50,850 nt of DNA from Minisyncoccia bacterium (GTDB lineage: Bacteria > Patescibacteriota > Minisyncoccia > Phycocordibacterales > Zambryskibacteraceae): NCBI GenBank assembly GCA_049651785.1, contig JBASCT010000021.1, positions 1 through 50,850 on the forward strand, in the 5' to 3' direction. Position numbers and translations under genes: made by a program. The notes under the pieces were generated by a model that saw only the letters and a list, made by a program, of their open reading frames with translations, was not told where the DNA came from and ran no database searches. Positions 4,354 to 45,301 of the stretch are shown one piece after another (the stretch's first letter is position 1; each line of letters begins with the position of its first letter).

Positions 4354-5343
4354 CTAATTCGAGGTCGAAGCGCTGAAGACCGGGGTCACCGTGCGGTTGC
4401 CCGAGCCGTCGCGCGATTCGGCGGCGAAGTAGTAGAGAGTAGAGGTTGAGAGTCCCGAGAGATTCAGAGCATGACTCTGCTTCAAGGAAGTGTTTTCCAA
4501 GAAGTTCGTGGAAGTGGCGTTGACATCAAGCGAAGCTGAGGTGCCGTAGTAGACTTTCGAGGTTGCGTTCTCGTTTGTCTGCCAGGAAACCGTGGCACTC
4601 GTGCTTGCCACGAGGAGCGTTACATTCGAGATGGTCGGCGCCGTAACGTCGGCTACCAGAGATTTGGTCGCGAAGGAAAGCTCGGAGGAAGTCGAGACAT
4701 TTCCGGCCGCATCCTTGGAGCGAACAATGAAGTAGTAGGTGGTGGAGGCCGTAAGGTTTTCAAGAACGATTTTATGTTCTTTAACCCTATCGCTTTTTGT
4801 AACGGAAGCCGTTGTGGAGCTGTTAACATTTACTCCGGCGGTGGCGCTCCAGAAGACGGTTGAGTCCGACTTCTCGTTGGTATTCCAAGTGATCACTGCT
4901 TTCAGAGTATTCGGCTTAGCAGAGATGTTCGAGAGAATCGGCGCTACGGTGTCGACCGTGGAGGAAGCCGTGCCGGTGAAGGTGGCGTTCACTCCGAACG
5001 GCCTAAGACACTCGATAAGATCGGCAATGTCGGCGTTATTCGCCAAGAAGCCGTGACCGAAGAGGCGCTTAAAGACCTGTCGGCAGGATTTGGCGAGAGC
5101 CTGATCAGACTTCTTTTTGGTCCAATCTTCTTGTCTGTCGCTTCTCCTGTTGTCGTCTTTGTCGTCATCATCATCGTCGCTGTCATCGTCGCGATCGTCG
5201 TTGATTTCGACTCTTTCGGAACGGTCACTCGACTTGCGCTTCTTTTTGCCATTGTCGTTGTCATGGGCAAACGAGAGAGCCGGCGCGAGCAAGATTGCCA
5301 GCACGAGGGAAAACACGGTTAACTTTCTAAAGGTATCTGTCAT
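4354..5343 (-). CDS. Secreted protein with poly-Asp tract and two FN3-like repeats
   Basis: Signal peptide LVLAILLAPALSFA. DDRDDDSDDDDDDKDDN tract. Two tandem ~95-aa repeats (..ISN..W.TNE...YYF...D..GN). Confidence 0.65.
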   Translation of the reverse strand: MTDTFRKLTVFSLVLAILLAPALSFAHDNDNGKKKRKSSDRSERVEINDDRDDDSDDDDDDKDDNRRSDRQEDWTKKKSDQALAKSCRQVFKRLFGHGFLANNADIADLIECLRPFGVNATFTGTASSTVDTVAPILSNISAKPNTLKAVITWNTNEKSDSTVFWSATAGVNVNSSTTASVTKSDRVKEHKIVLENLTASTTYYFIVRSKDAAGNVSTSSELSFATKSLVADVTAPTISNVTLLVASTSATVSWQTNENATSKVYYGTSASLDVNATSTNFLENTSLKQSHALNLSGLSTSTLYYFAAESRDGSGNRTVTPVFSASTSN

Positions 5344-5488
5344 AAGGTTTTTTTAAGTTTTATGGAGACTTTTCGTCTCTCCCTTATTCAGACGCCCGAA
5401 ACGGAGGCTTCTTTCGTAGACAGGAATGGGTTTATATCGTATTGTTTTGAGGCGGGAAACCGCGAAAGTTTGTGTCCCCCAATCCGTC

Positions 5489-6007
5489 ATGTCTATTAGT
5501 GAGCTCGAAAAGCGCTTTAGCGATATTTACAATAAAGAGTCGGACGCCCTGTTCCGTTTCTGTTTCCTGCGGGTTTCCGACAGGGAAAAGGCGCTCGATC
5601 TCACTCAGGAAGCGTTTACCCGCCTCTGGCGAACTTTTACAAGCGGAAAGGAAGTAGGGAACCCGCGCGCCCTTGTCTTCGTCACGGCGCGGAATCTCAT
5701 TATCGACTGGTACAGGAGGAAGAAACCCCTCTCCCTCGAGGGGCTCTCGGCTGATGACGACAAGTCCTTCGATATTCCCGACGAGAAAGCGTTAAGAGAA
5801 ATTGAACTTTCATCCGATGCTCGGCGCGCGCTCGAACTTGTCGAGGAACTCGAAGCTGAGTACCGCGAAGTAATCTACTTGCGTTTCGTCTCCGACCTCG
5901 AGCCCCGCGATATCGCCGAGGTTTTGGGACTCAACGCCAACACCGTCTCGGTCCGCCTGACCCGGGGGATGGACGCTCTGCGCCGACTCATGGGTATCGA
6001 AAAATAG
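5489..6007 (+). CDS. ECF-type RNA polymerase sigma-70 family factor
   Basis: Region 2 (ARNLIIDWYRR) and region 4 HTH (PRDIAEVLGLNANTVSVRLTRG). ATG 5489 preferred over the track start 5426. Confidence 0.8.
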   Translation: MSISELEKRFSDIYNKESDALFRFCFLRVSDREKALDLTQEAFTRLWRTFTSGKEVGNPRALVFVTARNLIIDWYRRKKPLSLEGLSADDDKSFDIPDEKALREIELSSDARRALELVEELEAEYREVIYLRFVSDLEPRDIAEVLGLNANTVSVRLTRGMDALRRLMGIEK

Positions 6008-6031
6008 TTCGATAAACTCACCACAAGTAAA
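6008..6031 (+). promoter_or_regulatory. Conserved intercistronic spacer motif, copy 1
   Basis: ttcgataaactcaccacaagtaaa fills exactly the 24 nt from TAG of the sigma gene to ATG 6032. See copies at 22160, 22643, 24967 and 27818. Confidence 0.7.
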
Positions 6032-6910
6032 ATGAACGAAAAAGATTTCAACAAAGGAATAGAAGAGCTCAAAAATATCCGTCTTTCAAAGTCGGAGAAA
6101 GAGAGTATTTTCAAACAGGTTGTGTCGGCGCCGATTGAATCTCCGTACGTTAAGCGCTCACCGATTTTCATCTCCATTTTTACAAGGCACGCTCAGGTAT
6201 TTGTCGCCGCCTCGCTCATCTTCGTAGTATCTTTCGGCGGCGTCATCTACGCTTCCGACGAAGCCCTCCCCGGCGACATTCTCTATCCGGTAAAGACGGC
6301 CATGGTTGAACCCGTGCTCGACCGAGTTTACAGCGCGCCGGACGACAAGCTTGTTTGGGAAGAGGAAAAAGTCGAGCGACGCATCGCCGAGGCGGAGAAA
6401 CTTATAGAAAAAGATGAGCTCGATGATGAAAAGCTCGCCAAGCTTGAAGCAAAAATCGAGAGAAGCTCGATCGCCTTCGCGGAAGCGGCCAGTCTCGTCG
6501 CTTCTTCTACCGCGACCTCGAGCTCTTCTAAAAAAGAGAGAGAAAAGAAGATAAAAGAAAATTTTAGGGCTAAAATAAACGAGCGGAAAATTGCTTTTGA
6601 CGATGATGACGATGAGGAGCTTGATGATTCGGCGTCTTCCGCCACCATGATGATGTCGGTTCCCGTTGCCGACCAAGACAGAGTTTTGAATGAATTGACG
6701 GGTGAGAGCTCAAAGCGCGGCGGCAAGAGTCTCAACAAGGACAAAATTGAAAGATTGAAGAAAGCCGCGACCAGAAACCTCAACGGCGATGATGACGACC
6801 ACGACGATGATGAAAACAGGGACGATGATGACGACAACGACGAGCGAGACGATAGGGAGAATAGTGTCGAGACTGAAGTGGAGATTAAAATAGAGGACGT
6901 TCGTATATAA
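6032..6910 (+). CDS. Putative anti-sigma/membrane partner of the ECF sigma factor
   Basis: Immediately downstream of the sigma gene. Single TM helix VFVAASLIFVVSFGGVIYA, coiled coil, Asp-rich tail. The role is inferred from position only. Confidence 0.5.
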   Translation: MNEKDFNKGIEELKNIRLSKSEKESIFKQVVSAPIESPYVKRSPIFISIFTRHAQVFVAASLIFVVSFGGVIYASDEALPGDILYPVKTAMVEPVLDRVYSAPDDKLVWEEEKVERRIAEAEKLIEKDELDDEKLAKLEAKIERSSIAFAEAASLVASSTATSSSSKKEREKKIKENFRAKINERKIAFDDDDDEELDDSASSATMMMSVPVADQDRVLNELTGESSKRGGKSLNKDKIERLKKAATRNLNGDDDDHDDDENRDDDDDNDERDDRENSVETEVEIKIEDVRI

Positions 6911-11468: not shown

Positions 11469-12506
11469 ATGAGCGAGAAGCTTGTTTTAAATTTCAAACC
11501 CAAGGAGGTCGTCAAGCGCCTTTTATCAAGTTTGACGAAAAGGGGGCAGGATGTACTTGTGAGTCGCTACGGCTTGGGCGCGAAAACGGGCAAGATGACC
11601 CTCGACACCATTGGCAAGAAATACAGCATTACCCGTGAGCGTGTCCGTCAGATTGAGAATCACTCCCTCGCCACTATCAGGAAATCAAAGACCTACAAGG
11701 AGTCAGAGTCGGCTCTTACGGAACTCAAGGCGCTTATCATGGAGCTCGGCGGTATTGTCTCCGAAAAAGATCTTCTGAACCATCTCTCAAAAGACCAGAG
11801 CACCCAGAACCATTTTCATTTCCTGCTCGTTATCGGCGAGAGCTTCAAGCGCGAGAAAGAGGACGAGGAGTTCAAACACCACTGGCATGTCGATCAAGAG
11901 CTTGCCGCGAAGATTAAGACGGCCCTCCGCAAGCTCTACTCCAAACTCTCCGACGATGAACTTGTGTTCGAGAGCGATATGGTTGACTCCTTCTTAGACG
12001 AGGTCAAAGACATAAACGAAAAGTATAAAAACGAAGAGGTGGTCAAGCGCTGGCTCTCGCTCTCCCACAAAATAGGCAAGAATCCCTTGGGCGAATGGGG
12101 TAAATCTTCTTCTTCCAACGTCAATGCCAAAGGTATGCGCGATTACGCCTTCCTTGTCATCAGAAAGCACGGCTCACCAATCCACTTCAAAGAAGTGGCC
12201 AAGGCCATCACAAAATATTTTAATAAAAAAGCGCATGTCGCCACGACCCACAACGAACTTATCAAGGACCCGCGCTTTGTTCTTGTCGGCCGCGGGCTTT
12301 ATGCTCTCGCCGAGTGGGGTTACATGTCCGGTGTGGTTAAAGATGTCATCAGGAATATCATCGAGAAAGAGGGACCCCTGACCAAGGACAAGATTATCGA
12401 GAAAACCCTCAAGGAGCGCTACGTTAAGGAAAACACGATTCTCGTTAACCTCCAGAATCCGAAGTATTTCAAAAAAGACTCCGCCAACAGATACCATAAT
12501 GCCTAA
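11469..12506 (+). CDS. Sigma-70 region-4-like HTH protein with C-terminal HARE-HTH-like domain
   Basis: TLDTIGKKYSITRERVRQIENHSL resembles sigma region 4. The C-terminal MRDYAFLVIRKHGSPIHFKEV...GRGLYALAEWG resembles RpoE-delta/HARE-HTH. Confidence 0.6.
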   Translation: MSEKLVLNFKPKEVVKRLLSSLTKRGQDVLVSRYGLGAKTGKMTLDTIGKKYSITRERVRQIENHSLATIRKSKTYKESESALTELKALIMELGGIVSEKDLLNHLSKDQSTQNHFHFLLVIGESFKREKEDEEFKHHWHVDQELAAKIKTALRKLYSKLSDDELVFESDMVDSFLDEVKDINEKYKNEEVVKRWLSLSHKIGKNPLGEWGKSSSSNVNAKGMRDYAFLVIRKHGSPIHFKEVAKAITKYFNKKAHVATTHNELIKDPRFVLVGRGLYALAEWGYMSGVVKDVIRNIIEKEGPLTKDKIIEKTLKERYVKENTILVNLQNPKYFKKDSANRYHNA

Positions 12507-31964: not shown

Positions 31965-31990
31965 ATATACAAGATAGAGAGTTTTTCCAA

Positions 31991-32010
31991 CGTGGTATTA
32001 TTAAAAAATG
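31991..32010 (+). promoter_or_regulatory. Promoter/leaderless-start module copy A (CGTGGTATTATTAAAAAATG)
   Basis: Extended -10 TGgTATTAT with the ATG 6 nt downstream. Identical 20-mers occur at 33648 and 35912. Confidence 0.65.
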
Positions 32011-32124
32011 AGTTTTCCCGTTTTTAGTATTACTCTTGGAGTGACGGCTGGACTCCTTCAGCTTATCGGATACTTCTTTTACGTAAAGAAAATAAATGTT
32101 GGCAGGGTGAAGCCGAATGCTTGA
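32008..32124 (+). pseudogene. Truncated 5' fragment of a membrane-protein gene (38 codons)
   Basis: MSFPVFSITLGVTAGLLQLIGYFFYVKKINVGRVKPNA then stop. Homologous to the fragment at 33665. It could instead be a genuine small TM peptide. Confidence 0.45.
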
Positions 32125-33623: not shown

Positions 33624-33647
33624 AACATCATAAAAGAATTTCTCTTG

Positions 33648-33667
33648 CGTGGTATTATTAAAAAATG
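33648..33667 (+). promoter_or_regulatory. Promoter/leaderless-start module copy B
   Basis: CGTGGTATTATTAAAAAATG, identical to copies at 31991 and 35912. Confidence 0.65.
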
Positions 33668-33748
33668 AGTTTTCCTGTGTTTACCATAACACTTGGTATC
33701 TTTGCTGGGTTTGTGCAACCAATTACAACACTAGTAGTAACAATTTAG
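33665..33748 (+). pseudogene. Truncated 5' fragment of the same membrane-protein gene family (27 codons)
   Basis: MSFPVFTITLGIFAGFVQPITTLVVTI then TAG. The first 29 nt from the module start are identical to copy A; the sequences diverge after that. Confidence 0.45.
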
Positions 33749-33829: not shown

Positions 33830-34828
33830 ATGGAAATTCGCTTTGTTGTTGCAACACATTGCAACGCTGACTGCTACTTCTGTCTCAATGAGTATGTTGG
33901 AACAAAGTCCCCAAATTTCGCACTCTACCCAACTCATTATGAAAGAATAATGAGATCGGCGGCTGATCTAGCCGTAACAGATTGCACAATTACAGGAGGA
34001 GAACCAACCTTAAGAAAAGATCTCGGTGGAGTTATGTCTGCGATACGAGGTAATGCTTCTCGTATAACACTCATTACCAACGGGTATCGTCTTCCGCAAC
34101 ACAAACTTGCGCTTGAGCAGATCGATGAGCTCCATGTTAGTTTCCATTCAATGAATGAAGGTGAGTGGAAACGAATAACTAATGTCGGAGGTGGTCCCGA
34201 ACGCGTGATTCGTGGTTTGCGTTTTGCACGATCAGTAAACGAGGAGATGAGGATTAAGCTCAACGTTGTGAGTGAGGAACAAAACTCTACCAATGAGGAG
34301 ATTGAAAAATATCTCACTCTCGCAAAGGAGATCTCAGCTGACATCAACGTTTTTAAGGAAGGATATTTTTCTTTCCTTAGTGAAATGGGTGTGGAGGTTA
34401 AGAAATCTCCTGTTCCAGTAGAACTTTGGGAATTGGAATCATTTTCCCCCATTCTTCTTGGAAGTACCCACAGAAAGAAGACTTTCTCTGTAAATGGTGT
34501 GAAAGTTTCACTTTCTCACACGAGTACCGACTTTCCTAGTTGGGATTCATGCTGGATTACTCCTATGGGACAAGCGTTTGTTGATTCTAGGCAACGCCTA
34601 CCGCTCATAGATCTCTTACCCGCCATCGAATCCGAAAACTACAAAAAAATTAGGGGTTCTCTGGATTCTCTTTTTAGAGAAGCAGAGATATGGCGCGGGT
34701 GCGGAGACGTTGGAAAGGGTAATCTACCAAAGGAGATTGAAACTCTGGGGAAAGAGCGCTCAGAAATTTTCGACACATCGAAATCTGTCAATGTTGCGAG
34801 GTTAGTGAAATGGCAAAAGCAAAGATAG
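33830..34828 (+). CDS. Radical SAM enzyme, MoaA/viperin-like
   Basis: CNADCYFC (CxxxCxxC) at residues 11-18, ITGGEPTLRKDL, LITNGYRL. The C-terminal Cys triad of MoaA is not present. GGAG 6 nt upstream of the ATG. Confidence 0.8.
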   Translation: MEIRFVVATHCNADCYFCLNEYVGTKSPNFALYPTHYERIMRSAADLAVTDCTITGGEPTLRKDLGGVMSAIRGNASRITLITNGYRLPQHKLALEQIDELHVSFHSMNEGEWKRITNVGGGPERVIRGLRFARSVNEEMRIKLNVVSEEQNSTNEEIEKYLTLAKEISADINVFKEGYFSFLSEMGVEVKKSPVPVELWELESFSPILLGSTHRKKTFSVNGVKVSLSHTSTDFPSWDSCWITPMGQAFVDSRQRLPLIDLLPAIESENYKKIRGSLDSLFREAEIWRGCGDVGKGNLPKEIETLGKERSEIFDTSKSVNVARLVKWQKQR

Positions 34829-35361
34829 TTTCTTTTGACGGACATGATTGTGTCGGCAAGACATCTCTGATGAGCGCGACTGTTCACGCGCTTTCAGAGA
34901 AAGGTCTTTCGGTTACAATGTTCAGGTCAGTAAATAAGGACTTTGAGACAGAGCGTCTGCGTCACTCAGAAGTATCTCAGAACATTTGGTTCTATGTGAG
35001 CGCATGGTTGAACACTGAAAAGGAAATCCTTAAATCAGTAGATTCAACAAACTTCATCTTCATCGACAGGTCTTATTACTCGACCATGGTTCTTGCTGGG
35101 GCCCTTGACCTCTATTTTCCTCATTTTCTCCTTCAAACATTCTTGAAGCCAGACTATGCGTTTTGGGTTCAGGTTAGTGAAGAGGAGAGAATGAGACGAC
35201 TCGAAAGAAAAAGAGCCACACGAGAGGACTACATAACCGTAAACGCCACACTCATAAGTAAGGCCGATCTGATTTACACATCCTTGGGGCTACTTCCGCT
35301 TAATAACGAGGGCCCACTTCAGGATGGAGCGCAAAGGCTTTCGGCGATTCTCCTTCGCTAA
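34810..35361 (+). CDS. Thymidylate-kinase-like P-loop nucleotide kinase
   Basis: FDGHDCVGKTS P-loop, FIFIDRSYYST (DR motif), PDYAFWVQVSEEERMRRLERKR lid-like region. 19-nt overlap with the radical SAM gene. Confidence 0.7.
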   Translation: MAKAKIVSFDGHDCVGKTSLMSATVHALSEKGLSVTMFRSVNKDFETERLRHSEVSQNIWFYVSAWLNTEKEILKSVDSTNFIFIDRSYYSTMVLAGALDLYFPHFLLQTFLKPDYAFWVQVSEEERMRRLERKRATREDYITVNATLISKADLIYTSLGLLPLNNEGPLQDGAQRLSAILLR

Positions 35362-35365
35362 TTAT

Positions 35366-35401
35366 AACTGCGTACTGTAAAATTATGGTACGCAGTTTTT
35401 T
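35366..35401 (+). terminator. Rho-independent terminator
   Basis: aactgcgtac-(12-nt loop)-gtacgcagtt running into tttttt. Confidence 0.7.
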
Positions 35402-35893
35402 ATGAAATTGTTATCAAAAAAAGTAGTCAATCTTAATAATTCTAATTTGAACGTCTCTATTTTTAAGATAGAGAGCGATAGTGACCTTTTTGGTGCAAGT
35501 CGAGTGTATGTACTAGGGGTAAATAAGGGCGGTTCAGTCTGCATAATTTTCAATGCAAAGAGAAAAATATGGGGTTTCCCAGGAGGTCATATAGACGAAG
35601 GCGAATCAGTGACAGAGGCAATAAAACGAGAAAGCATGGAAGAATGCGGATATTCTCTTGAGATTGTTGAGCCAAAATTTGTTATTGAAAATGTTGTTGA
35701 TGATAAGGTTGAGAAACAGGTAATATGTTTTGGCAGATTTGAACATAATATCAATAAGCTTAACGCAGCAGAAGGGGAGACTGTTACAGATGTAAGGTTT
35801 GTGAATCTGTCCGAATTAAACACACTTATTTCTTTGCCTCAAGTTTGGTCAGAAATAATTGAGGAATTTGAATTGTGGTTGAAAAACACCTAA
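35402..35893 (+). CDS. Nudix hydrolase
   Basis: Complete Nudix box GGHIDEGESVTEAIKRESMEECGY. Confidence 0.85.
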   Translation: MKLLSKKVVNLNNSNLNVSIFKIESDSDLFGASRVYVLGVNKGGSVCIIFNAKRKIWGFPGGHIDEGESVTEAIKRESMEECGYSLEIVEPKFVIENVVDDKVEKQVICFGRFEHNINKLNAAEGETVTDVRFVNLSELNTLISLPQVWSEIIEEFELWLKNT

Positions 35894-35911
35894 AAATAAC
35901 AAATCTCCTAG

Positions 35912-35931
35912 CGTGGTATTATTAAAAAATG
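35912..35931 (+). promoter_or_regulatory. Promoter/leaderless-start module copy C
   Basis: CGTGGTATTATTAAAAAATG. Here the ATG opens the 161-aa membrane protein gene. Confidence 0.65.
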
Positions 35932-37648: not shown

Positions 37649-39274
37649 ATGGGTTACAACTTAGAACAAAATATTGAATATTGTAGAGTAATTGTGGAAG
37701 AGTTTTCTGGTCTTTTATATTACTCACACATCCCTTCTGCAGCCGTAGCACTTTTAATTGGATTTTTTGTGTTCTGGAAAAATAAAGACTCTCTTCTTGC
37801 CATTCTTTTATTGATCATTAGTGTTTTATTTACTTTCTGGAGCGCTCTAGATTTGGCTATCTGGATGAACTATGCCAAGGGTGACATTGTGATGGCGGCG
37901 TGGGCACCAATAGAGCTTATTGCTGTACTAATATTTGTTTTCTGTTTGTACTTTGTGTATGTCTTTACTGATGGTAAAGATGTAAGTCTGTCTAAAAAAC
38001 TTATTTGGACTGCCCTTGTGTTACCAATGATATTAGTTTTGCCAACAGTATTTAATCTAGAGGGCTACGATATTCAGGAGTGTATAGCAACAGAGAGTAC
38101 GTATTACCAGCTGTACTATCGTGCACTTAAAATTATATTTTCTGTATGGATAGTATTTACTCTGATTCGCAAATACATTGAAACCAAAGGTGAGTTTAAA
38201 AAACAAATAATGTTTCTAGGGCTAGGAATGACTATTTTTATTCTAAGTTTCTTTGTAGCGGGTTATGTATCAGATACAACTTTTGACTATAGTTACGAAA
38301 TGTATGGTTTGTTTGCCATGGCAATCTTCATGGCATTCCTAGCGTATCTAATTGTTAAATTTAAAACATTCCATCTTAAACTCTTTGGCGCCCAAGTTCT
38401 TATAATTTCTCTAATTATTCTCATCGGTTCTCAATTTGCTTTTATTCAGACTACTACTAATAAAATCCTTACCTCTGTAACATTAATAATTACCGGTCTC
38501 ATCGGCATTAATTTGATCAGAAGCGTTAGAAAGGAAATTGAAGCTAAGAAGCACATTGAAAAACTTGCAGGTGAGTTGCAGACAGCCAACGAAGGTCAGC
38601 AAAATCTTATCCATATTATTAACCACCAGATTAAGGGCTACTTGGCGAAGGCGAGAAATATATTCTCCGAACTTTTGAATGAGCCGAGTTATGGCCCCGT
38701 CTCGGACGCTTCTAAGCCGATGCTTGAAGAAGGATTCAAGTCGCTCACGGAGGGTGTTGACCTCGTCAAAGACTTTTTGGATGCCTCCAATATCGAGCGG
38801 GGCTCGTATGCCTTCAGTCTCGCACCCCTTGATTTCAGGGCACTCGTCGAAGAGATGGCGGAGAAAGAGAAGAGTCTCGCGGAAGATAGAAAGCTTTCTT
38901 ACGAAGTGAAAATTGAGAATGGTGACTACAACACAAAAGGGGATAAGCTCCAGCTCGGACAAGCGGTCAAGAACCTGATAGACAACTCTATCCGCTACAC
39001 TCTCGAGGGTGGTCTCTCTGTAAATCTCTCAAGGAAGGATGGCAAGATTCTCTTCTCGGTCAAAGACACTGGCGTTGGTCTCTCGGAAGAGTTGAAGCCG
39101 AAACTCTTTACCCAAGGCGGTCGTGACAAGAACTCTATCAAGATAAACATCAACTCCACTGGCTTCGGTCTCTCCTTCGTTAAAAGTGTTGTTGAAGCAC
39201 ATAAGGGTCGTGTCTGGGCCGAGTCCGACGGTCCCAACAAAGGCTCCACTTTTTACATGGAATTGCCAGTGTAA
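37649..39274 (+). CDS. Sensor histidine kinase with large multi-TM N-terminal domain
   Basis: About 8 hydrophobic helices. H-box region IHIINHQIKGYL. N box NLIDNSIRYT, G1 DTGVGL, G2 GFGLSF. No response regulator nearby. Confidence 0.85.
   Translation: MGYNLEQNIEYCRVIVEEFSGLLYYSHIPSAAVALLIGFFVFWKNKDSLLAILLLIISVLFTFWSALDLAIWMNYAKGDIVMAAWAPIELIAVLIFVFCLYFVYVFTDGKDVSLSKKLIWTALVLPMILVLPTVFNLEGYDIQECIATESTYYQLYYRALKIIFSVWIVFTLIRKYIETKGEFKKQIMFLGLGMTIFILSFFVAGYVSDTTFDYSYEMYGLFAMAIFMAFLAYLIVKFKTFHLKLFGAQVLIISLIILIGSQFAFIQTTTNKILTSVTLIITGLIGINLIRSVRKEIEAKKHIEKLAGELQTANEGQQNLIHIINHQIKGYLAKARNIFSELLNEPSYGPVSDASKPMLEEGFKSLTEGVDLVKDFLDASNIERGSYAFSLAPLDFRALVEEMAEKEKSLAEDRKLSYEVKIENGDYNTKGDKLQLGQAVKNLIDNSIRYTLEGGLSVNLSRKDGKILFSVKDTGVGLSEELKPKLFTQGGRDKNSIKININSTGFGLSFVKSVVEAHKGRVWAESDGPNKGSTFYMELPV
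38978..39271 (+). repeat. Direct repeat copy 1 (3' end of the histidine kinase gene)
   Basis: 294 nt aligns without indels to 44290-44583 with about 18 mismatches counted by eye. Codon-level similarity extends ~12 nt further upstream. Confidence 0.9.
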
Positions 39275-39289
39275 TGAATATTTAACTTT

Positions 39290-40504
39290 ATGCTCAAACG
39301 CATTACTGGATATGATTATTCTCCTGATTTAGAAGAAGTAGAGGTTATCGAGAGAAAGGGGATTGGCCATCCAGATAGCGTTGCAGACATAATTGCCGAA
39401 TCATTTTCAAATGATTATTCAAAATATTATCAAAAAAAATACGGCAAAATTTTAAATCACTGGTTTGATAAAGTTTTAATTTCTGGAGGGGAAGCTATCC
39501 TTAGACCTGGATTTGGTAGTATTATCAAAAAACCAAAGGTATATCTTTTTGGCAAAATAACCAGAGTAAGCAATGACGATTTAAATATTGAAGAATTTTT
39601 TAAAATTACAGTTTTTAGGGTAATGCGCGATATATTCGGTATTGAAGATGAAATAATGCCAGATATTGTTGTAGATACCAACTCTGGAGTCGGAGCAGAA
39701 CACCCTATAAGTTTTTATAATACCAATGTTTATGATATTACTAAAGAGAGTGATGACTTAGTTTCAAACGACACAATTTTCTGCAATGGATACTATCCAT
39801 ATACTAAATTAGAACATTACGTTTGTGACCTTGAAAATTATATTAACTCCAAATCATTTAAAGAAAATCATTATTATACTGGTTTTGATGTTAAGGTTCT
39901 TGCTAAACGAATTAAAAATAATATAGATATCACGGTATGCATTCCTTTTATTGCGGCCAGAACAGAATCTTGGGCATTATATTTTGAATTAAAGAAAAAC
40001 ATTGAAAATGATCTTTACTTTTTTACTAAAAAATTTAAGTGGGACAGCGTCAATATACACCTAAACACAAAGGATCGAGAAGGCAAGGGCTTTTTAACTT
40101 TATATGGAAGCGCCTTCGACAAGGGTGATTTTGGTGTGGTAGGTAGGGGAAATAGATATTTGGGCTTCATCACCTCTTGTCGTGGGGAAACCCAAGAAGC
40201 TTATAGTGGAAAAAACCCAGTTATTCACTCGGGAAAATTATTCTCGATAATAGCTCATCGTATTGCAAGAAAGATAAGTATTCTAGATGGTGGTCCTGTT
40301 AAGGTTATTATATGTATCAATAACGGGTCTCCTATTAAAGAACCAGAATCTGTATTTGTATTTACTAAAGATAAGAAAATATCTGATCAGCATATAAGAG
40401 GATTATTGCTCAACGAATTTAATAATATTCACAATATTACTACTCACATTATTAATTTAAATCCAGTAGAAGAGTTTGTTACAAAAAGCATTCTACTATC
40501 ATAA
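39290..40504 (+). CDS. Archaeal-type S-adenosylmethionine synthetase (MAT, PF01941-like) homolog
   Basis: ERKGIGHPDSVADIIAE, SNDTIFCNGYYP, GDFGVVGRGNR and SGKNPVIHSGK align by eye to the conserved blocks of archaeal MAT. Confidence 0.7.
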   Translation: MLKRITGYDYSPDLEEVEVIERKGIGHPDSVADIIAESFSNDYSKYYQKKYGKILNHWFDKVLISGGEAILRPGFGSIIKKPKVYLFGKITRVSNDDLNIEEFFKITVFRVMRDIFGIEDEIMPDIVVDTNSGVGAEHPISFYNTNVYDITKESDDLVSNDTIFCNGYYPYTKLEHYVCDLENYINSKSFKENHYYTGFDVKVLAKRIKNNIDITVCIPFIAARTESWALYFELKKNIENDLYFFTKKFKWDSVNIHLNTKDREGKGFLTLYGSAFDKGDFGVVGRGNRYLGFITSCRGETQEAYSGKNPVIHSGKLFSIIAHRIARKISILDGGPVKVIICINNGSPIKEPESVFVFTKDKKISDQHIRGLLLNEFNNIHNITTHIINLNPVEEFVTKSILLS

Positions 40505-40510
40505 AATATT

Positions 40511-41374
40511 ATGCATATATTGGTTTCTTTATTTCACACTACTATCGATTTGCCCAGCTTATATGTTTTTGACTCTGATTTGAATCCAGTACTTAAATTT
40601 GCAAATGAATACAGAAACATCAAAGGATTGTTTTTAAGTAAAAGTTTTATATATGCCGGCTATAAGGATGAAAATAATGATTGTTGGCTGTTAATATTTT
40701 CCAAGCAATTTTTTAAACTTGTAAATAAATGTTTACTAATAAACACCATTGACATACACTCCATCTACATAACGAATAATCTGTTGTATGTAGTATCAAG
40801 TGGGACAAACAGTATTTATGTGTATAAAATTGATAACTTGGAGAATCTGAATAAAGCCAATCCCATCAGTAACATAAAAACATTAATTACTGATATAGAC
40901 AATGAAGACATTCTTCATTTAAACAGTATTTATATAAAAGAAAACAACGACTTATTTATTACGGGTTTTGGAGGCAAGAAGCAGGGGGAATGGAATAAAG
41001 AATGCAATGGCTTCATATTGAACATTAAGCAGAATATAGTACTATTGGATGGAATATTTCACCCGCACTCATTATTTTTTAGAGACTCTGATATGTGGTT
41101 TTGTGAATCTGGTAAAAAAAGAGTATATAAAAATAAAGAAATCGTGGTGGATAAAGCAGATGGGTATACTAGGGGTCTCGCTCTTTCTGAGAACGGCAAG
41201 TTTCTATTACTAGGAACTTCTACTTCACGTATTTATGGTCAAGAAGAGGTTGACCTAAAAACAAGTGGGGTTCATAAATTTGAAATAAATGAAAAATCAT
41301 TTTTAGTGCCTGTAAAGTCATTTTATTTTAAAGATACACAGGCGGAGATTTATGACTTAATAGAGTTAAGATGA
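40511..41374 (+). CDS. DUF4915/TIGR03032-like beta-propeller protein
   Basis: LHLNSIY, HPHSLFFRDSDMWFCESGKKRV, GYTRGLAL and EIYDLIEL resemble the conserved blocks I recall for that family. Assigned from memory only. Confidence 0.5.
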   Translation: MHILVSLFHTTIDLPSLYVFDSDLNPVLKFANEYRNIKGLFLSKSFIYAGYKDENNDCWLLIFSKQFFKLVNKCLLINTIDIHSIYITNNLLYVVSSGTNSIYVYKIDNLENLNKANPISNIKTLITDIDNEDILHLNSIYIKENNDLFITGFGGKKQGEWNKECNGFILNIKQNIVLLDGIFHPHSLFFRDSDMWFCESGKKRVYKNKEIVVDKADGYTRGLALSENGKFLLLGTSTSRIYGQEEVDLKTSGVHKFEINEKSFLVPVKSFYFKDTQAEIYDLIELR

Positions 41375-42255
41375 AAAAAACGATAACTTATATTGGAATA
41401 TCGCCGTTTAATAGTAGTCCTAGAATGGGAGGCCTGAGGACAATGCTATACACATATGTTTTTACTCGTCATAATAATGGACTTATATATTTAAAATCAG
41501 ATGATACTAATCCAGGCAGTAGAATTAAGGACAACTATTATTCCCAAGTTAAGTTTTTAAATGCGTGCGGCTTAAACTTTGAAAGCAATGAGCTAAAGAA
41601 TCCTAGTGGATCATCAATTTTTCAATCTGAAAATAGCACAGTTTATACTGAATATTTAAATAAATTAGTTGATTGTGGGCTGACATCTGAAAAAGATAGC
41701 TTAGTCTCTTTAGATATTAGAGCAATAATTGATTATTTAAAATTGAAAAACATAACCATACACGATTTATTAAGGGGTGACATAAATTTTAAAGCAGATA
41801 GATTGGGTTATGAATATATACCACTATATTCTCGCAGTAAAAAAAGGTTTTTCTTCCATCTCCCAACTATTATTGATGAGTCAATCTACGGAACCACCCT
41901 GCTTATAAGAGGCGAAGATAAAATTTCTACAGCCCCGATTCATGAAATTTTAAAAAAATTCTTTTTGTTAGAGAAGCAAGATTATCTACACCTACCTTTA
42001 TTGTTAGACAAATCAACAAATAAAAGAATAAAAAGTGATAATTATTTAGTAAGCGAGATGGTCAAAAAGTACCCAACCCCTGTAGTGGTAGCATACTTAC
42101 TTTTATCTGGTTATAGGAGTAGAAGGTTTAAATATGTTTCATTAAGTGAATTTACTGAAGATTTCAATTATCACAAATTGAAAAAGCAGTCCGGAAAGTT
42201 TTATGAGGAAGATCTTATTAAAATATCCGAAAAATACCGTAAGCTAATTAAATAG
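41371..42255 (+). CDS. GluRS/GluQRS-like class I catalytic-domain paralog with degenerate HIGH and KMSKS
   Basis: ISPFNSSPRMGGLRTMLYTYVF (HIGH position reads PRMG), FQSE, LLIRGEDKISTAPIHE, YLHLPLLLD..NKRIKS. 294 aa with no anticodon-binding domain. ATGA overlap with the upstream gene. Confidence 0.6.
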   Translation: MKKTITYIGISPFNSSPRMGGLRTMLYTYVFTRHNNGLIYLKSDDTNPGSRIKDNYYSQVKFLNACGLNFESNELKNPSGSSIFQSENSTVYTEYLNKLVDCGLTSEKDSLVSLDIRAIIDYLKLKNITIHDLLRGDINFKADRLGYEYIPLYSRSKKRFFFHLPTIIDESIYGTTLLIRGEDKISTAPIHEILKKFFLLEKQDYLHLPLLLDKSTNKRIKSDNYLVSEMVKKYPTPVVVAYLLLSGYRSRRFKYVSLSEFTEDFNYHKLKKQSGKFYEEDLIKISEKYRKLIK

Positions 42256-42288: not shown

Positions 42289-43743
42289 ATGCAGAAGCAA
42301 AAGTATTTTTACATAACGACGACATTGCCGTATGTAAACGCACAACCGCACATAGGTCACGCCTTGGAATTTGTACGTGCAGATTCGATAGCAAGATATA
42401 AAAAAATTAATGGCTATAATGTCTTTTTCAACACAGGCACTGATGAGCACGGGCAAAAACTGCTAGAAGCAGCAAATAAAAAAAATATTAACATTAAAAA
42501 TTATGTTGATACCAACTCGCAAGTATTCAAAAAATTACTCGTGATTTTGGGTATAAGTGAAAACATTAATTTTATTCGTACTACTGATCCTAATCATATA
42601 AAAGCGGCACAAGAATTTTGGAAAAGGGTCGAGAAAAACGGATTTATATATAAAGCCAAATATCAGGTAAGGTATTGTGTGGGGTGTGAACTTGAAAAAT
42701 TCGACTCAGACTTGGTGGATGGGAGGTGTCAGTATCATCCGACACTAGATATTCAGATAATAAATGAGGATAACTATTTCTTTAGACTTTCTGATTTTCA
42801 AGATAGATTAATCAGTCTTTTTGAGAAAAACATAAATTTTATTTTACCAGAGTCTAGATACAATGAAGCAAAAAATTTTATTTCACATGGGCTTAAAGAT
42901 TTTTCAATATCTAGATTGAAATCAAAGATGTCTTGGGGCATTCCGGTTCCCGGCGATGACGAGCACGTAATGTATGTATGGTTTGATGCCCTAACGAGCT
43001 ACATAAACGCCTTAGGATGGCCTGAAAACGTAGAAATTTTTAAGAAATATTGGGTTAATGGAACTCCTGTTCAGTATTGTGGACAAGACAACCTAAGACA
43101 ACAGTCAATTATATGGCAAGCAATGTTGATGGCTGCTAATTTACCAAACTCTAATAAAATAATTGTAAATGGTTTTGTGCTTGGTGAAGGCGGGGTAAAG
43201 ATGTCTAAAACTGCGGGTAATGTTATAGACCCCATTAAGTTGGTTGAAAATTATGGTAAAGACGCAGTACGTTTATACTTGCTGAAAAATATCCACCCAT
43301 GGAATGGCTCACCTATTTCATACAAATCATTCCATCTTACATATGAAGCTGAGCTTGTTAATGGTCTTGGTAACTTAACCTCACGGCTGTTGAATATGTC
43401 AGAAAAATATTTAAACGAACCAGTTAGTTTCCCAGATAAATTTGAATCTAAAGAATGGTTCGACCACTTTGAAGACTATAGAATGGATTTAGTTACTGAG
43501 TTTATATGGGGGAAAATCTACAAATTAGATAAATCGATCTCTGAAACTGAACCCTTTAAATTGGTCAGTACAGATCTGCCAAAAGCGCAAATGTTGTTAA
43601 AAGAATACGCAAGAGATTTATACACTATCGCCCAAATGCTAGAGCCGTTATTACCAGAAACAAGCCGTCAAGTTAAAGGTTTAATAAAACAGAACAAAAA
43701 ACCTAGGGCACCTCTTTTTCCAAGAAAAAGGATGTTAAAATAA
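42289..43743 (+). CDS. metG: Methionyl-tRNA synthetase (core form, 484 aa)
   Basis: PYVNAQPHIGHALE (HIGH), single knuckle CVGCE...CQYH, VWFDAL, KMSKTAGNVIDP. Confidence 0.9.
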   Translation: MQKQKYFYITTTLPYVNAQPHIGHALEFVRADSIARYKKINGYNVFFNTGTDEHGQKLLEAANKKNINIKNYVDTNSQVFKKLLVILGISENINFIRTTDPNHIKAAQEFWKRVEKNGFIYKAKYQVRYCVGCELEKFDSDLVDGRCQYHPTLDIQIINEDNYFFRLSDFQDRLISLFEKNINFILPESRYNEAKNFISHGLKDFSISRLKSKMSWGIPVPGDDEHVMYVWFDALTSYINALGWPENVEIFKKYWVNGTPVQYCGQDNLRQQSIIWQAMLMAANLPNSNKIIVNGFVLGEGGVKMSKTAGNVIDPIKLVENYGKDAVRLYLLKNIHPWNGSPISYKSFHLTYEAELVNGLGNLTSRLLNMSEKYLNEPVSFPDKFESKEWFDHFEDYRMDLVTEFIWGKIYKLDKSISETEPFKLVSTDLPKAQMLLKEYARDLYTIAQMLEPLLPETSRQVKGLIKQNKKPRAPLFPRKRMLK

Positions 43744-43747
43744 TACT

Positions 43748-43822
43748 GGGAGGGTAGCTCAGCCTGGTAGAGCACTGGTATCATTTACCAGAGGTCATGG
43801 TGTTCAAATCCCATCCCTCCTA
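43748..43822 (+). tRNA. tRNA-like gene, anticodon CAT (Met/Ile2 type), atypical structure
   Basis: Hand fold. Acceptor GGGAGGG/CCCTCCT (G1-U72). D arm GCTC-AGCCTGGTA-GAGC. Anticodon stem CTGGT/ACCAG with loop ATCATTT. T arm ATGG(T)G-TTCAAAT-CCCAT needs a bulged U. No CCA encoded. Confidence 0.6.
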
Positions 43823-43860
43823 CTAACTTTAATATTAAAAATATTGTAAGAGTTGTTGCA

Positions 43861-44589
43861 ATGATTGAATTTGAAGCAAAATTTTTAGATATAGAAAAGG
43901 GAAAGATTAGGGCACTCCTAAAACATAAGGGCGCGCGCCTTGTTAGACCTGAATATAGCCAAAAACGATTCAACTTTCACCTGCCTAAAGATAAGAGATC
44001 TAATGATGCTTGGTTAAGAGTTCGTAATGAGGGTGATAGGATCACACTAGCCCTCAAAATGATTACGGGATCTAGCATAGAAGATCAGAAAGAAATCCAA
44101 CTAGTAATTGATAGTTTTGATAACGCAATTACTCTCCTTGAGTCAATAGGATGTGAGAAAAAAGCTTTTCAAGAGTCAAGGAGAGAGCTTTGGAAGTTAG
44201 GTCAAACAGAAATTACAATAGATGAATGGCCTGGATTGGAGCCGTTTGTTGAGATTGAGGGATCCTCTGAAGATGAGGTAAAAAACCCTATAGACAACTC
44301 TATCCGCCACACTCTCGAGGGTGGTCTCTCTGTAAATCTCTCAAGGAAGGACGGCAAAATTCTTTTCTTTGTCAAAGACACCGGTGTCGGTCTCTCGGAG
44401 GAGCTGAAGCCGAAGCTCTTCACCCAAGGTGGTCGTGACAAGAACTCTATCAAGATAAACATCAACTCCACTGGCTTCGGTCTCTCCTTCGTTAAATGTG
44501 TTGTTGAAGCACATAAGGGTCGTGTCTGGGCCGAGTCCGACGGCCCCAACAAGGGCTCCACTTTTTACATGGAATTGCCCGTGATTTAA
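43861..44589 (+). CDS. Chimeric ORF: C-terminally truncated CYTH (CyaB/triphosphatase-like) domain fused to a histidine-kinase HATPase_c fragment
   Basis: N-terminal IEFEAKF (ExExK) CYTH signature for about 140 aa. From ~44278 the sequence duplicates the last ~100 codons of the kinase at 37649..39274. Confidence 0.65.
   Translation: MIEFEAKFLDIEKGKIRALLKHKGARLVRPEYSQKRFNFHLPKDKRSNDAWLRVRNEGDRITLALKMITGSSIEDQKEIQLVIDSFDNAITLLESIGCEKKAFQESRRELWKLGQTEITIDEWPGLEPFVEIEGSSEDEVKNPIDNSIRHTLEGGLSVNLSRKDGKILFFVKDTGVGLSEELKPKLFTQGGRDKNSIKININSTGFGLSFVKCVVEAHKGRVWAESDGPNKGSTFYMELPVI
44290..44583 (+). repeat. Direct repeat copy 2
   Basis: See 38978-39271. The central ~110 nt are identical. Most differences are third-codon positions. 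Confidence 0.9.
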
Positions 44590-44590
44590 G

Positions 44591-45301
44591 ATGGTAACAA
44601 GTAACCAAAAAGAAGTACTTTTCAGGGAAATTTTCTCGTATATAAAAAAATACCAAGTTAAGTCACTCCTCGATATCGGAGCGGGGGATGGTCCTTTGGC
44701 CAAAAGATTGGCGGGCAAGGTTTCCGAATATCTTGCTGTTGAGCGCGACAGTAGGCGAGCTAAAAATTTAAGATCACTAGGACTAAACGTAATTCACGGC
44801 ACTTTTCCTGTAAAAACAGGGAAGAAGTTTGATATGGTGCTTGTCTCTCATTCCATACCAGAAAACGCTACATTCTATAAACCATTTTTAAAAAGAGCGT
44901 GGAATTTGGTTAACGGCGATGGGATTTTGCTGATAATAACTTTTAAAGGCCAACTCGGCGAGCTATATAAACTTAGAAGAGAATGGCGAGCTACTGATAG
45001 TCAAGGAAATCGAGACATGGAACCCTACAAACTCATGCTAAAGATTCTCAGAAGTTTTGGCGGTGTCAAAATTCATAGGGCCGTCAGCGAATTCAAATCC
45101 ACCAATCTTGCTGAAATCGTCAAGTTAACCATGTTATCGGTAGGTCCCGCGAAAGCAAAAAGACAAGCGTGCAAACAATTTCTCGGAAAATTTTTAAAGG
45201 ACAGCCGTCGCTCCAGGAAACCATACACCCTCAGTCACCAACACATCTTTTTATCCGTCCGCAATAAAAAAGGGCCAGCAACCTATGTTGCTGGCCCTTA
45301 A
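44591..45301 (+). CDS. Class I SAM-dependent methyltransferase
   Basis: Motif I LLDIGAGDGPLA. Starts 2 nt after the stop of the chimeric ORF. The 3' end runs through the terminator hairpin. Confidence 0.7.
   Translation: MVTSNQKEVLFREIFSYIKKYQVKSLLDIGAGDGPLAKRLAGKVSEYLAVERDSRRAKNLRSLGLNVIHGTFPVKTGKKFDMVLVSHSIPENATFYKPFLKRAWNLVNGDGILLIITFKGQLGELYKLRREWRATDSQGNRDMEPYKLMLKILRSFGGVKIHRAVSEFKSTNLAEIVKLTMLSVGPAKAKRQACKQFLGKFLKDSRRSRKPYTLSHQHIFLSVRNKKGPATYVAGP
45272..45297. terminator. Bidirectional hairpin terminator
   Basis: gggccagcaac-ctat-gttgctggccc, preceded by aaaaaa. Lies between convergent genes. Confidence 0.75.

Follow-up and report, generated by a model that had tools for sequence, protein, structure and literature searches.

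We analyzed a transfer RNA gene with the anticodon CAU, at positions 43748–43822 (forward strand) of contig JBASCT010000021.1 from a Minisyncoccia bacterium, together with the genes that accompany it. The whole contig of 50.8 kb (50,850 nt), referred to here as the window, belongs to a 570-kb genome in 38 contigs that is rated 96% complete. The tRNA gene closes a cassette of four protein-coding genes on the same strand. The first of these, at 39290–40504, encodes an archaeal-type S-adenosylmethionine (SAM) synthetase (MAT; Pfam PF01941, E 4.5e-81). It is followed by the gene of a DUF4915/TIGR03032-like protein (40511–41374; Pfam and NCBIfam matches), then by that of a 294-residue glutamyl-tRNA synthetase (GluRS)-like catalytic core which has no anticodon-binding domain and belongs to a family of 12 proteins (41371–42255; Pfam tRNA-synt_1c), and finally by that of a methionyl-tRNA synthetase (MetRS) of 484 residues, the second MetRS of the genome (42289–43743; Pfam tRNA-synt_1g and NCBIfam metG, TIGR00398). 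The stop codon of the MetRS gene, TAA at 43741–43743, is separated from G1 of the tRNA by 4 nt (TACT). We compared this locus with nine related loci, found via the GluRS-like protein family in one Collierbacteria genome and eight metagenome contigs. The tRNA(CAU) of the window is a real, conserved, structurally constrained and supernumerary gene that is co-inherited with a MetRS across distant hosts.

The cassette tRNA and its family

ARAGORN called a single tRNA in the window, tRNA(cat) at 43748–43823, and the Rfam tRNA model RF00005 matched 43748–43822 over its entire length (model positions 1–71 of 71) with a score of 49.3 bits (E 1.2e-07 for the whole window), above the Rfam gathering score of 29 bits. 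An earlier sequence-only reading of this DNA had placed a tRNA(CAU) 4 nt downstream of the cassette MetRS and had folded it by hand into a cloverleaf with a normal D arm, a canonical T loop and several oddities. The Infernal alignment and a ViennaRNA fold agree with that description, and the sub-threshold covariance score that the same reading had named as the mark of a pseudogene was not obtained. The acceptor stem (GGGAGGG/CCCTCCT) ends in a G1-U72 pair and the discriminator base is A73. The D arm (GCUC/GAGC) has the usual G18 and G19, AGGUC forms the variable loop and UUCAAAU the T loop. The anticodon stem (CUGGU/ACCAG) encloses the loop A32-U33-C34-A35-U36-U37-U38, in which U37 occupies a position that is normally a purine and A32 is able to pair with U38. 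The T stem, AUGG(U)G/CCCAU, closes only if one inserted U, which Infernal handles as an insertion, is bulged. In the minimum-energy structure (-25.5 kcal/mol, fold z-score -1.6), the molecule is a cloverleaf with the 32-38 pair closed and the T-stem bulge kept. A73 is followed by a single C and then TAACTT, and thus no CCA is encoded. The latter had been counted among the oddities; it is true of the window tRNA but is normal for its host, because 34 of the 44 host tRNAs have no encoded CCA and a gene of the CCA-adding-enzyme family is present on contig C28.

Eight homologues of the tRNA were recovered from the related loci, the ninth contig ending inside its MetRS gene, and the alignment of all nine sequences has one gap column, which is the extra U of the window copy. 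Standard pairing was found in 99% of helix cells and 13 of the 22 helix pairs tested showed compensatory changes, a result that none of 500 shuffles equaled, while control alignments in which the 3' partners were slid by one to three columns paired at 44–57% only. All five pairs of the anticodon stem covary among family members. Positions 32 and 38 also covary and are pairable in every member (A-U in six, U-G in two and U-A in one). U72 is present in all nine tRNAs and position 1 is G in six, A in two and C in one, which leaves every member with a weak or mismatched 1-72 pair. Neither the anticodon CAU nor A73 varies within the family. The anticodon loop is AUCAUUU in six members and UUCAUUG, UUCAUAA or UUCAUAG in one each, giving U37 in seven of the nine. 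This pattern of covariation indicates that the tRNA family is under structural purifying selection. Pyrimidine 37, the pairable 32-38, the weak 1-72 pair with U72 and A73 are inherited family traits rather than signs of decay.

The bulge in the T stem is the exception in being private to the window copy, as the eight other members have a clean 5-bp T stem of the GUAGG/CCUAC type. Decay of the gene, one of the options raised in the sequence-only reading, has no support at the level of the family and is improbable for the window copy, whose stems are kept, whose score is above threshold and whose other peculiarities are those of the family; only the single bulged U could represent damage. We considered separately whether the window copy, in a family of cassette tRNAs that otherwise function, has recently become a pseudogene through disruption of its T arm by the extra U, and regard this as improbable. 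It would account for a bulge that occurs in one member of nine, for a fold z-score of only -1.6 and for an Rfam score that is the lowest in comparison with both the eight homologues (53.4–68.3 bits) and the 31 scored host tRNAs (51.3–74.7 bits), although the low score also fits the presence of the private bulge. Against it, the score remains 20 bits above the Rfam threshold, the four open reading frames (ORFs) of the window cassette are all intact and the extra base could be a sequencing indel. In addition, the window lineage has acquired compensatory changes of its own in the T stem (49-65 and 51-63), the acceptor stem (5-68 and 6-67) and the entire anticodon stem, which speaks for continued selection on its fold. 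The extra U would then be either a tolerated feature or slight damage.

The tRNA gene may have a promoter of its own. A promoter-like site (TTTCCA, 16 nt, AATAAT) was identified by a consensus scan at 43717–43744 on the forward strand, ending 4 nt 5' of the tRNA, although the number of such sites in this AT-rich stretch is not above chance. Across the family, a -10-like box, often with an upstream TGn, lies 6–12 nt 5' of all nine tRNAs. This includes the two (in loci L139 and L141) that are inverted relative to the MetRS gene and cannot be reached by read-through from it. We infer that the 43717–43744 site would act as a promoter.

An additional MetRS/tRNA pair in two host genomes

Two complete host genomes were inspected, that of the window host (G000) and that of the Collierbacteria bacterium (G044). 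Comparison with the other CAU tRNAs of the genome, a check suggested by the sequence-only reading, revealed that three of the 44 tRNAs of the window host have this anticodon: the window copy, an elongator-type tRNA with the loop CUCAUAA (contig C25, 44657–44728), and an initiator-like tRNA, which has an encoded CCA as well as A11-U24 and an A1/A72 mismatch. The host's own MetRS, encoded on contig C34, is 45% identical to the cassette enzyme. Given this second MetRS and the other CAU tRNAs, the MetRS and tRNA of the window are extra. G044 has two MetRS genes above the metG cut-off, as well as a canonical elongator tRNAMet and a tRNA-Ile(UAU). The MetRS/tRNA pair is supernumerary in both inspected host genomes. 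In each of them the cassette tRNA is also the only tRNA with a pyrimidine at position 37, the other 43 tRNAs of the window host and the other 40 of the 41 in G044 having a purine. Among the 94 other CAU tRNAs of the loci that were fetched, 74 have the loop CUCAUAA.

It had been left open whether the CAU anticodon denotes an elongator tRNAMet, an initiator or, after modification, a tRNAIle2; of these a Met-type tRNA is favored. The initiator was rejected since the window tRNA has a G1-U72 wobble pair, C11-G24 rather than A11-U24, and no run of three G-C pairs at 29-41, 30-40 and 31-39 of its anticodon stem, whose third pair is U31-A39 (the homologue in L135 has three A-U pairs in this stem), and since the host has a separate initiator-like tRNA. 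The elongator assignment has the CAU anticodon and A73 on its side and lacks the purine 37 of a CUCAUAA-type loop. Three points make a lysidine-type tRNAIle2 unlikely: the search for TilS in the host found none, the host has a tRNA-Ile(UAU), and the cassette tRNA has a MetRS as its fixed partner.

The same observations bear on a broader proposal, that C34 is modified and the tRNA decodes AUA, either as an Ile2-like tRNA or with methionine at AUA, thereby aiding translation of the very AT-rich genes of the cassette and the island. The G+C content of the cassette (27–35%, versus roughly 50% for the genome) would suit such a role, as would the presence of a GluRS-like core, given that a GluQRS-type enzyme acts on wobble position 34 of another tRNA. 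We nevertheless consider it very improbable. TilS (TIGR02432) was not found in the 96%-complete host in a search whose model matched all 14 named control genomes, 10 of them above the cut-off. The tRNA-Ile(UAU) occurs in both inspected genomes, and AUA in the window host is apparently read by it. Moreover, the synthetase that accompanies the tRNA is a MetRS and not an IleRS, and GluQRS-type esterification needs a diol, which C34 does not offer.

The cassette MetRS has the features of a conventional enzyme. It scored 353.9 bits against TIGR00398 (cut-off 336.35), has the HIGH motif at residue 21 and KMSK at residues 304–307, and aligns over its full length to solved bacterial MetRS structures (2csx, E 1e-95). 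It keeps 164 of the 192 columns that are conserved in housekeeping MetRS. Cassette-specific substitutions affect only ~10 of those 192 columns and most are common to its housekeeping sisters, so no clear change of specificity was detected among them. In the MetRS tree the cassette enzymes form a well-supported clade with three housekeeping enzymes (L001–L003), nested within Paceibacteria-type MetRS; monophyly of the cassette enzymes was absent from the free tree yet was not rejected (approximately unbiased test, p = 0.24). Hence, on sequence, the cassette MetRS looks like an ordinary active enzyme captured from a low-G+C lineage. The loci L001–L003 were themselves examined as possible cassettes and rejected, as their MetRS genes, although in the cassette clade, have dnaJ or another housekeeping gene downstream and no trace of a tRNA; no close relative of the cassette tRNA was found in the three genomes.

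The GluRS-like core is more altered. Alignment to solved GluRS revealed that HIGH is replaced by R/S-x-G (the H is kept in one member) and KMSKS by K-R-x-K/R. The true GluRS of the host, on contig C9, is 28% identical to it. In the ESM Atlas, the clusters nearest to this core include two made up mostly of viral proteins, GluRS-like and limited to the catalytic domain (382 members, 71% from viruses, and 60 members, 86% from viruses), which we note as a lead only. Regarding the remaining enzymes, no MetK-type SAM synthetase was found in the host genome. The archaeal-type MAT occurs in only three of the 37 genomes of the host genus. The other two (G047 and G051) were considered as cassette carriers and rejected, since their MAT stands alone, is 31% identical and is accompanied by no cassette. 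No description of DUF4915 or of the cassette was found in the literature searched.

The mobile cassette and its insertion site

Genes for MAT, the GluRS-like core and MetRS are present in all nine related loci, and thus in all ten including the window, whereas the DUF4915 gene occurs in three of the ten (the window, L135 and L137). The MetRS of the related loci are 56–63% identical to that of the window. The tRNA(CAU) abuts the 3' end of the MetRS gene in all eight related loci that reach past it, the two inverted copies still directly adjoining it. Since this core is constant and the genes that flank it vary from locus to locus, the comparison points to MAT, optional DUF4915, the GluRS-like core, MetRS and tRNA(CAU) as the moving unit, and we read the cassette as a mobile unit of 4–5 kb.

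The 80 closest MetRS homologues in species genomes (50–64% identical; Paceibacteria, Nomurabacteria and similar) have no adjacent tRNA(CAU) and no cassette partner, and therefore are housekeeping genes. BLAST searches with the tRNA region against 24 genomes of the same genus and 16 of the same order returned generic arm matches only, with no close homologue of the tRNA in these 40 genomes. The exact 17-mer of the anticodon arm had 41 matches in genome contigs and four in viral contigs, none of which is a tRNA and whose numbers are at chance level. In place of the CYTH-domain ORF of the window (described below), other cassettes have different neighbors that handle phosphate: L134 has a pyrophosphatase gene 5' of MAT, and both L134 and L142 have an NDK-like ORF immediately 3' of the tRNA. 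In L136 (positions 4651–6395) genes for a C39-type peptidase and for a radical SAM enzyme come after the tRNA, a setting reminiscent of peptide maturation. A LOOT RNA (Rfam RF03000, 93.9 bits) was detected ~5.6 kb downstream of the cassette in L142 (positions 11597–11715).

The boundaries of the insertion in the window are marked by 300-nt direct repeats of 93% identity, identified by repeat search, tblastn and alignment, which bracket the cassette at a spacing of 5312. Both are on the forward strand. The first copy (38965–39264) is the 3' end of a resident, conserved histidine-kinase gene (37649–39274), and the second (44277–44576) is fused in frame behind a CYTH domain within the ORF at 43861–44589. 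That ORF is consequently chimeric: residues 1–139 form a CYTH (triphosphate tunnel) domain, and the kinase's duplicated HATPase_c end follows. At this site G008 (L405), which is the closest relative, and G004 (L406) have the kinase 3' end once only and lack the cassette; in these close relatives the kinase gene is directly followed by other genes. The two window copies are more alike than either is to the kinase end of the relatives. Locus L141, an unrelated metagenome contig, is similarly arranged around its own kinase gene, with kinase-end repeats at 586–678 and 4402–4494 that are 98% identical over the 93 nt retained by the contig. The 3' end of the kinase gene seems to be a place where accessory genes are inserted repeatedly; no recombinase was seen.

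These data are relevant to the suggestion that the tRNA is an attachment site, or the remnant of one, left by an integrative element. Such a role would be in keeping with the position of the tRNA at the 3' end of the cassette, tRNA genes being common integration targets. However, the search of the genome for a second copy of the tRNA or of its 3' half, which had been proposed as a check, yielded none (best match 17 nt, E 0.18), and no integrase domain was found in ORFs within or flanking the cassette. In both the window and L141 the repeats on either side of the cassette consist of kinase 3' ends, and comparison with the empty sites of G008 and G004 places the tRNA inside the inserted block. 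It is also full length and conserved in nine loci. An attachment-site origin is accordingly extremely improbable, and the tRNA is cargo.

The cassette sits in a 17-kb accessory mosaic that has other features. Upstream of the cassette, at 33830–35893, there is a trio of genes for a radical SAM enzyme, a kinase and a Nudix protein. A module of ~25–60 nt (GCGTGGTATTATTAAAAAATG...) occurs three times at gene starts in the accessory region (31978–32039, 33635–33696 and 35902–35931) and resembles a promoter common to these genes, with a leaderless start. The ORF that comes just after the second kinase end, at 44591–45301, is methyltransferase-like and matched the PADLOC model mad2 (mads_2; E 2.6e-12).

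Possible roles of the cassette tRNA and known parallels

Of the options raised in the sequence-only reading, we favor that of a specialized substrate for the adjacent synthetase-like enzymes, as the tRNA is co-inherited with the MetRS and GluRS-like genes and is structurally selected. A more specific form of it, in which the cassette tRNA has a dedicated role as a methionyl carrier that is probably used by the GluRS-like core, and in which the SAM synthetase acts on methionine as well, is one that we put forward tentatively, as falling a little short of probable. CAU and A73 are the classical identity elements of MetRS. Because this identity set is invariant in the family, and the HIGH and KMSK motifs and most of the conserved columns are kept in the enzyme, the cassette MetRS would be expected to charge its private tRNA with methionine. 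The tRNA itself would be transcribed from its own -10 box and matured by the CCA-adding enzyme of the host. In other tRNAs, purine 37 stacks on the first codon-anticodon pair, tRNAs for ANN codons normally carry t6A at this position, and a Watson-Crick 32-38 pair weakens binding to the ribosomal A site (PMC6103715). U37 and the closed 32-38 pair would be predicted to make the cassette tRNA a poor decoder of AUG, so that the charged tRNA would most likely be kept largely off the ribosome. A supernumerary isoacceptor that combines pyrimidine 37 with a closed 32-38 pair, as is expected of a non-proteinogenic tRNA, was found in both inspected genomes, and 32-38 is pairable in the entire family. 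The A51-U63 pair in eight of the nine family tRNAs is likewise suggestive of weak EF-Tu binding. The Met-tRNA would then serve as a carrier or scaffold for the cassette enzymes, the prime candidate user being the GluRS-like core, and methionine would also be the amino acid on which the SAM synthetase works.

Several findings weigh against a role off the ribosome. The T loop (GUUCAAAUC) and the D loop (G18 and G19) are fully canonical, unlike those of non-proteinogenic tRNAGly, so that use by the ribosome and EF-Tu is still conceivable. Two family members have A37 and hence U37 is not obligatory, and the window copy has G51-C63 instead of A51-U63, in addition to the low Rfam score described above. 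There are ~49 phage tRNA(CAU) genes with U37 in IMG/VR, mostly initiator-like, and U37 is therefore compatible with some use on the ribosome. The K-R-x-K/R motif of the GluRS-like core may still bind ATP, and none of the known aminoacyl-tRNA transferases (Fem, MprF, CDPS, LanB/PEARL) is among the cassette genes. For the full scheme, we would claim only that it is possible, with doubt prevailing. In it, the cassette would be a hitherto undescribed tRNA-dependent pathway that can be transmitted horizontally: the private MetRS/tRNA pair would bring methionine, or a derivative related to SAM and formed on the tRNA, to a GluRS core repurposed for work off the ribosome, and the anticodon arm, with its pyrimidine 37 and closed loop, would have evolved so that the carrier stays out of translation.

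The phage tRNAs are also pertinent to a different explanation, in which the cassette is a translation-competent spare set that provides a back-up MetRS, tRNAMet and SAM synthetase, so that translation and methylation can go on when the host components are attacked, the changes at loop positions 32, 37 and 38 conferring resistance to an anticodon-loop nuclease or toxin. We rate this as unlikely, although it has a number of attractions. The three loop positions vary while CAU is fixed, as would be produced by an arms race, the T and D loops are canonical, and the cassette is located within an accessory mosaic. Phage tRNAs have been proposed to evade VapC- and PrrC-type nucleases through mutations in the anticodon loop (PMC10264068). 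U37 tRNA(CAU) genes are frequent in phage contigs, where 49 of 50 pattern matches were tRNAs, alongside at least 119 matches to an A37 control pattern. On the other hand, the U37 phage tRNAs are not adjacent to cassette genes and the GluRS-like family was not found in the viral contigs of IMG/VR. No PADLOC defense model was matched by the cassette proteins, and their PHROGs matches were to generic synthetase groups only. No nuclease or toxin partner is visible beside the cassettes, and a closed 32-38 pair together with U37 should weaken A-site decoding of an A/U-rich codon. A spare set also leaves the GluRS-like core and DUF4915 unexplained. As a separate observation, made on the IMG/VR contigs L195–L244 and also on 16 of L143–L194, nearly all of the U37 phage tRNA(CAU) genes are initiator-like, with CGCGG/UGCGG acceptor stems, GGG/CCC anticodon stems and loops such as CUCAUUC and CUCAUUA. 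Similar genes, which may belong to prophages, occur in genomes of Lachnospiraceae, Muribaculaceae, Bacilli and Polyangia. U37 initiator-type tRNAs thus appear to be a recurrent phage trait.

The cassette is unusual in three respects. Its Met-type tRNA family has a pyrimidine at position 37, a trait almost unseen elsewhere; this tRNA is firmly tied to a synthetase of its own, to a SAM synthetase and to a GluRS core with altered motifs; and the set moves between ultra-small bacteria, most of which, in the host genus, apparently have no SAM synthetase. Dedicated tRNAs that leave translation are rare and informative, examples being staphylococcal tRNAGly in cell wall synthesis and the selenocysteine and pyrrolysine tRNAs. 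If the cassette tRNA is a non-ribosomal carrier, it would represent a new tRNA-dependent pathway as well as a natural, nearly orthogonal MetRS/tRNA pair. If instead it is a nuclease-proof spare, the idea of counter-defense by phage tRNAs would extend to cellular mobile cassettes.

By analogy, we infer that the closest functional parallel to the cassette tRNA would be the non-proteinogenic tRNAGly of staphylococci. The latter has pyrimidine 37, an anticodon stem of 6 bp that closes a loop of 5 nt, and A51-U63; it binds EF-Tu weakly and feeds the FemXAB enzymes, which build the pentaglycine of the cell wall, rather than the ribosome (PMC6103715; PMC7826273). Like staphylococcal tRNAGly(UCC), the cassette tRNA is an extra isoacceptor with pyrimidine 37 and a 32-38 pair that gives a 6-bp stem and 5-nt loop, has A51-U63 in eight of nine members and has kept its anticodon as an identity element for the synthetase. 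It differs in being a Met-type tRNA with CAU and a canonical T loop, the staphylococcal ones having lost T-psi-C, in being mobile with its own synthetase and without a Fem-type transferase, and in the G51-C63 of the window copy. The cassette tRNA also resembles phage tRNAs with anticodon-loop substitutions proposed to evade anticodon nucleases (PMC10264068), since it too is on a mobile element and has changes at loop positions outside a preserved anticodon. Unlike it, the U37 phage tRNAs are mostly initiator-like and do not lie beside a MetRS or GluRS-like gene, and the cassette was not found in viral contigs.

Two further systems are comparable in part. The GluRS-like core, as a GluRS catalytic domain without an anticodon-binding domain, is reminiscent of GluQRS (YadB), a core of this kind that acts on a specific tRNA, tRNAAsp, and gave a partial match to TIGR03838 (E 9e-15). 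It differs from GluQRS in scoring 54.8 bits against a cut-off of 276.7 and in its replaced HIGH motif, and its partner tRNA has C34 rather than queuosine, with a MetRS in every cassette. In pylT-pylS and related natural cassettes, a private tRNA gene lies beside a dedicated synthetase and biosynthetic genes and is moved horizontally with them as a block. Unlike pylT-pylS, the cassette described here has a sense anticodon, CAU, and an ordinary-looking MetRS nested among housekeeping MetRS, with no sign of a new amino acid. What it has in common with pylT-pylS is a tRNA gene placed directly beside its synthetase and enzymes for the same amino acid, in a block that moves as a unit.

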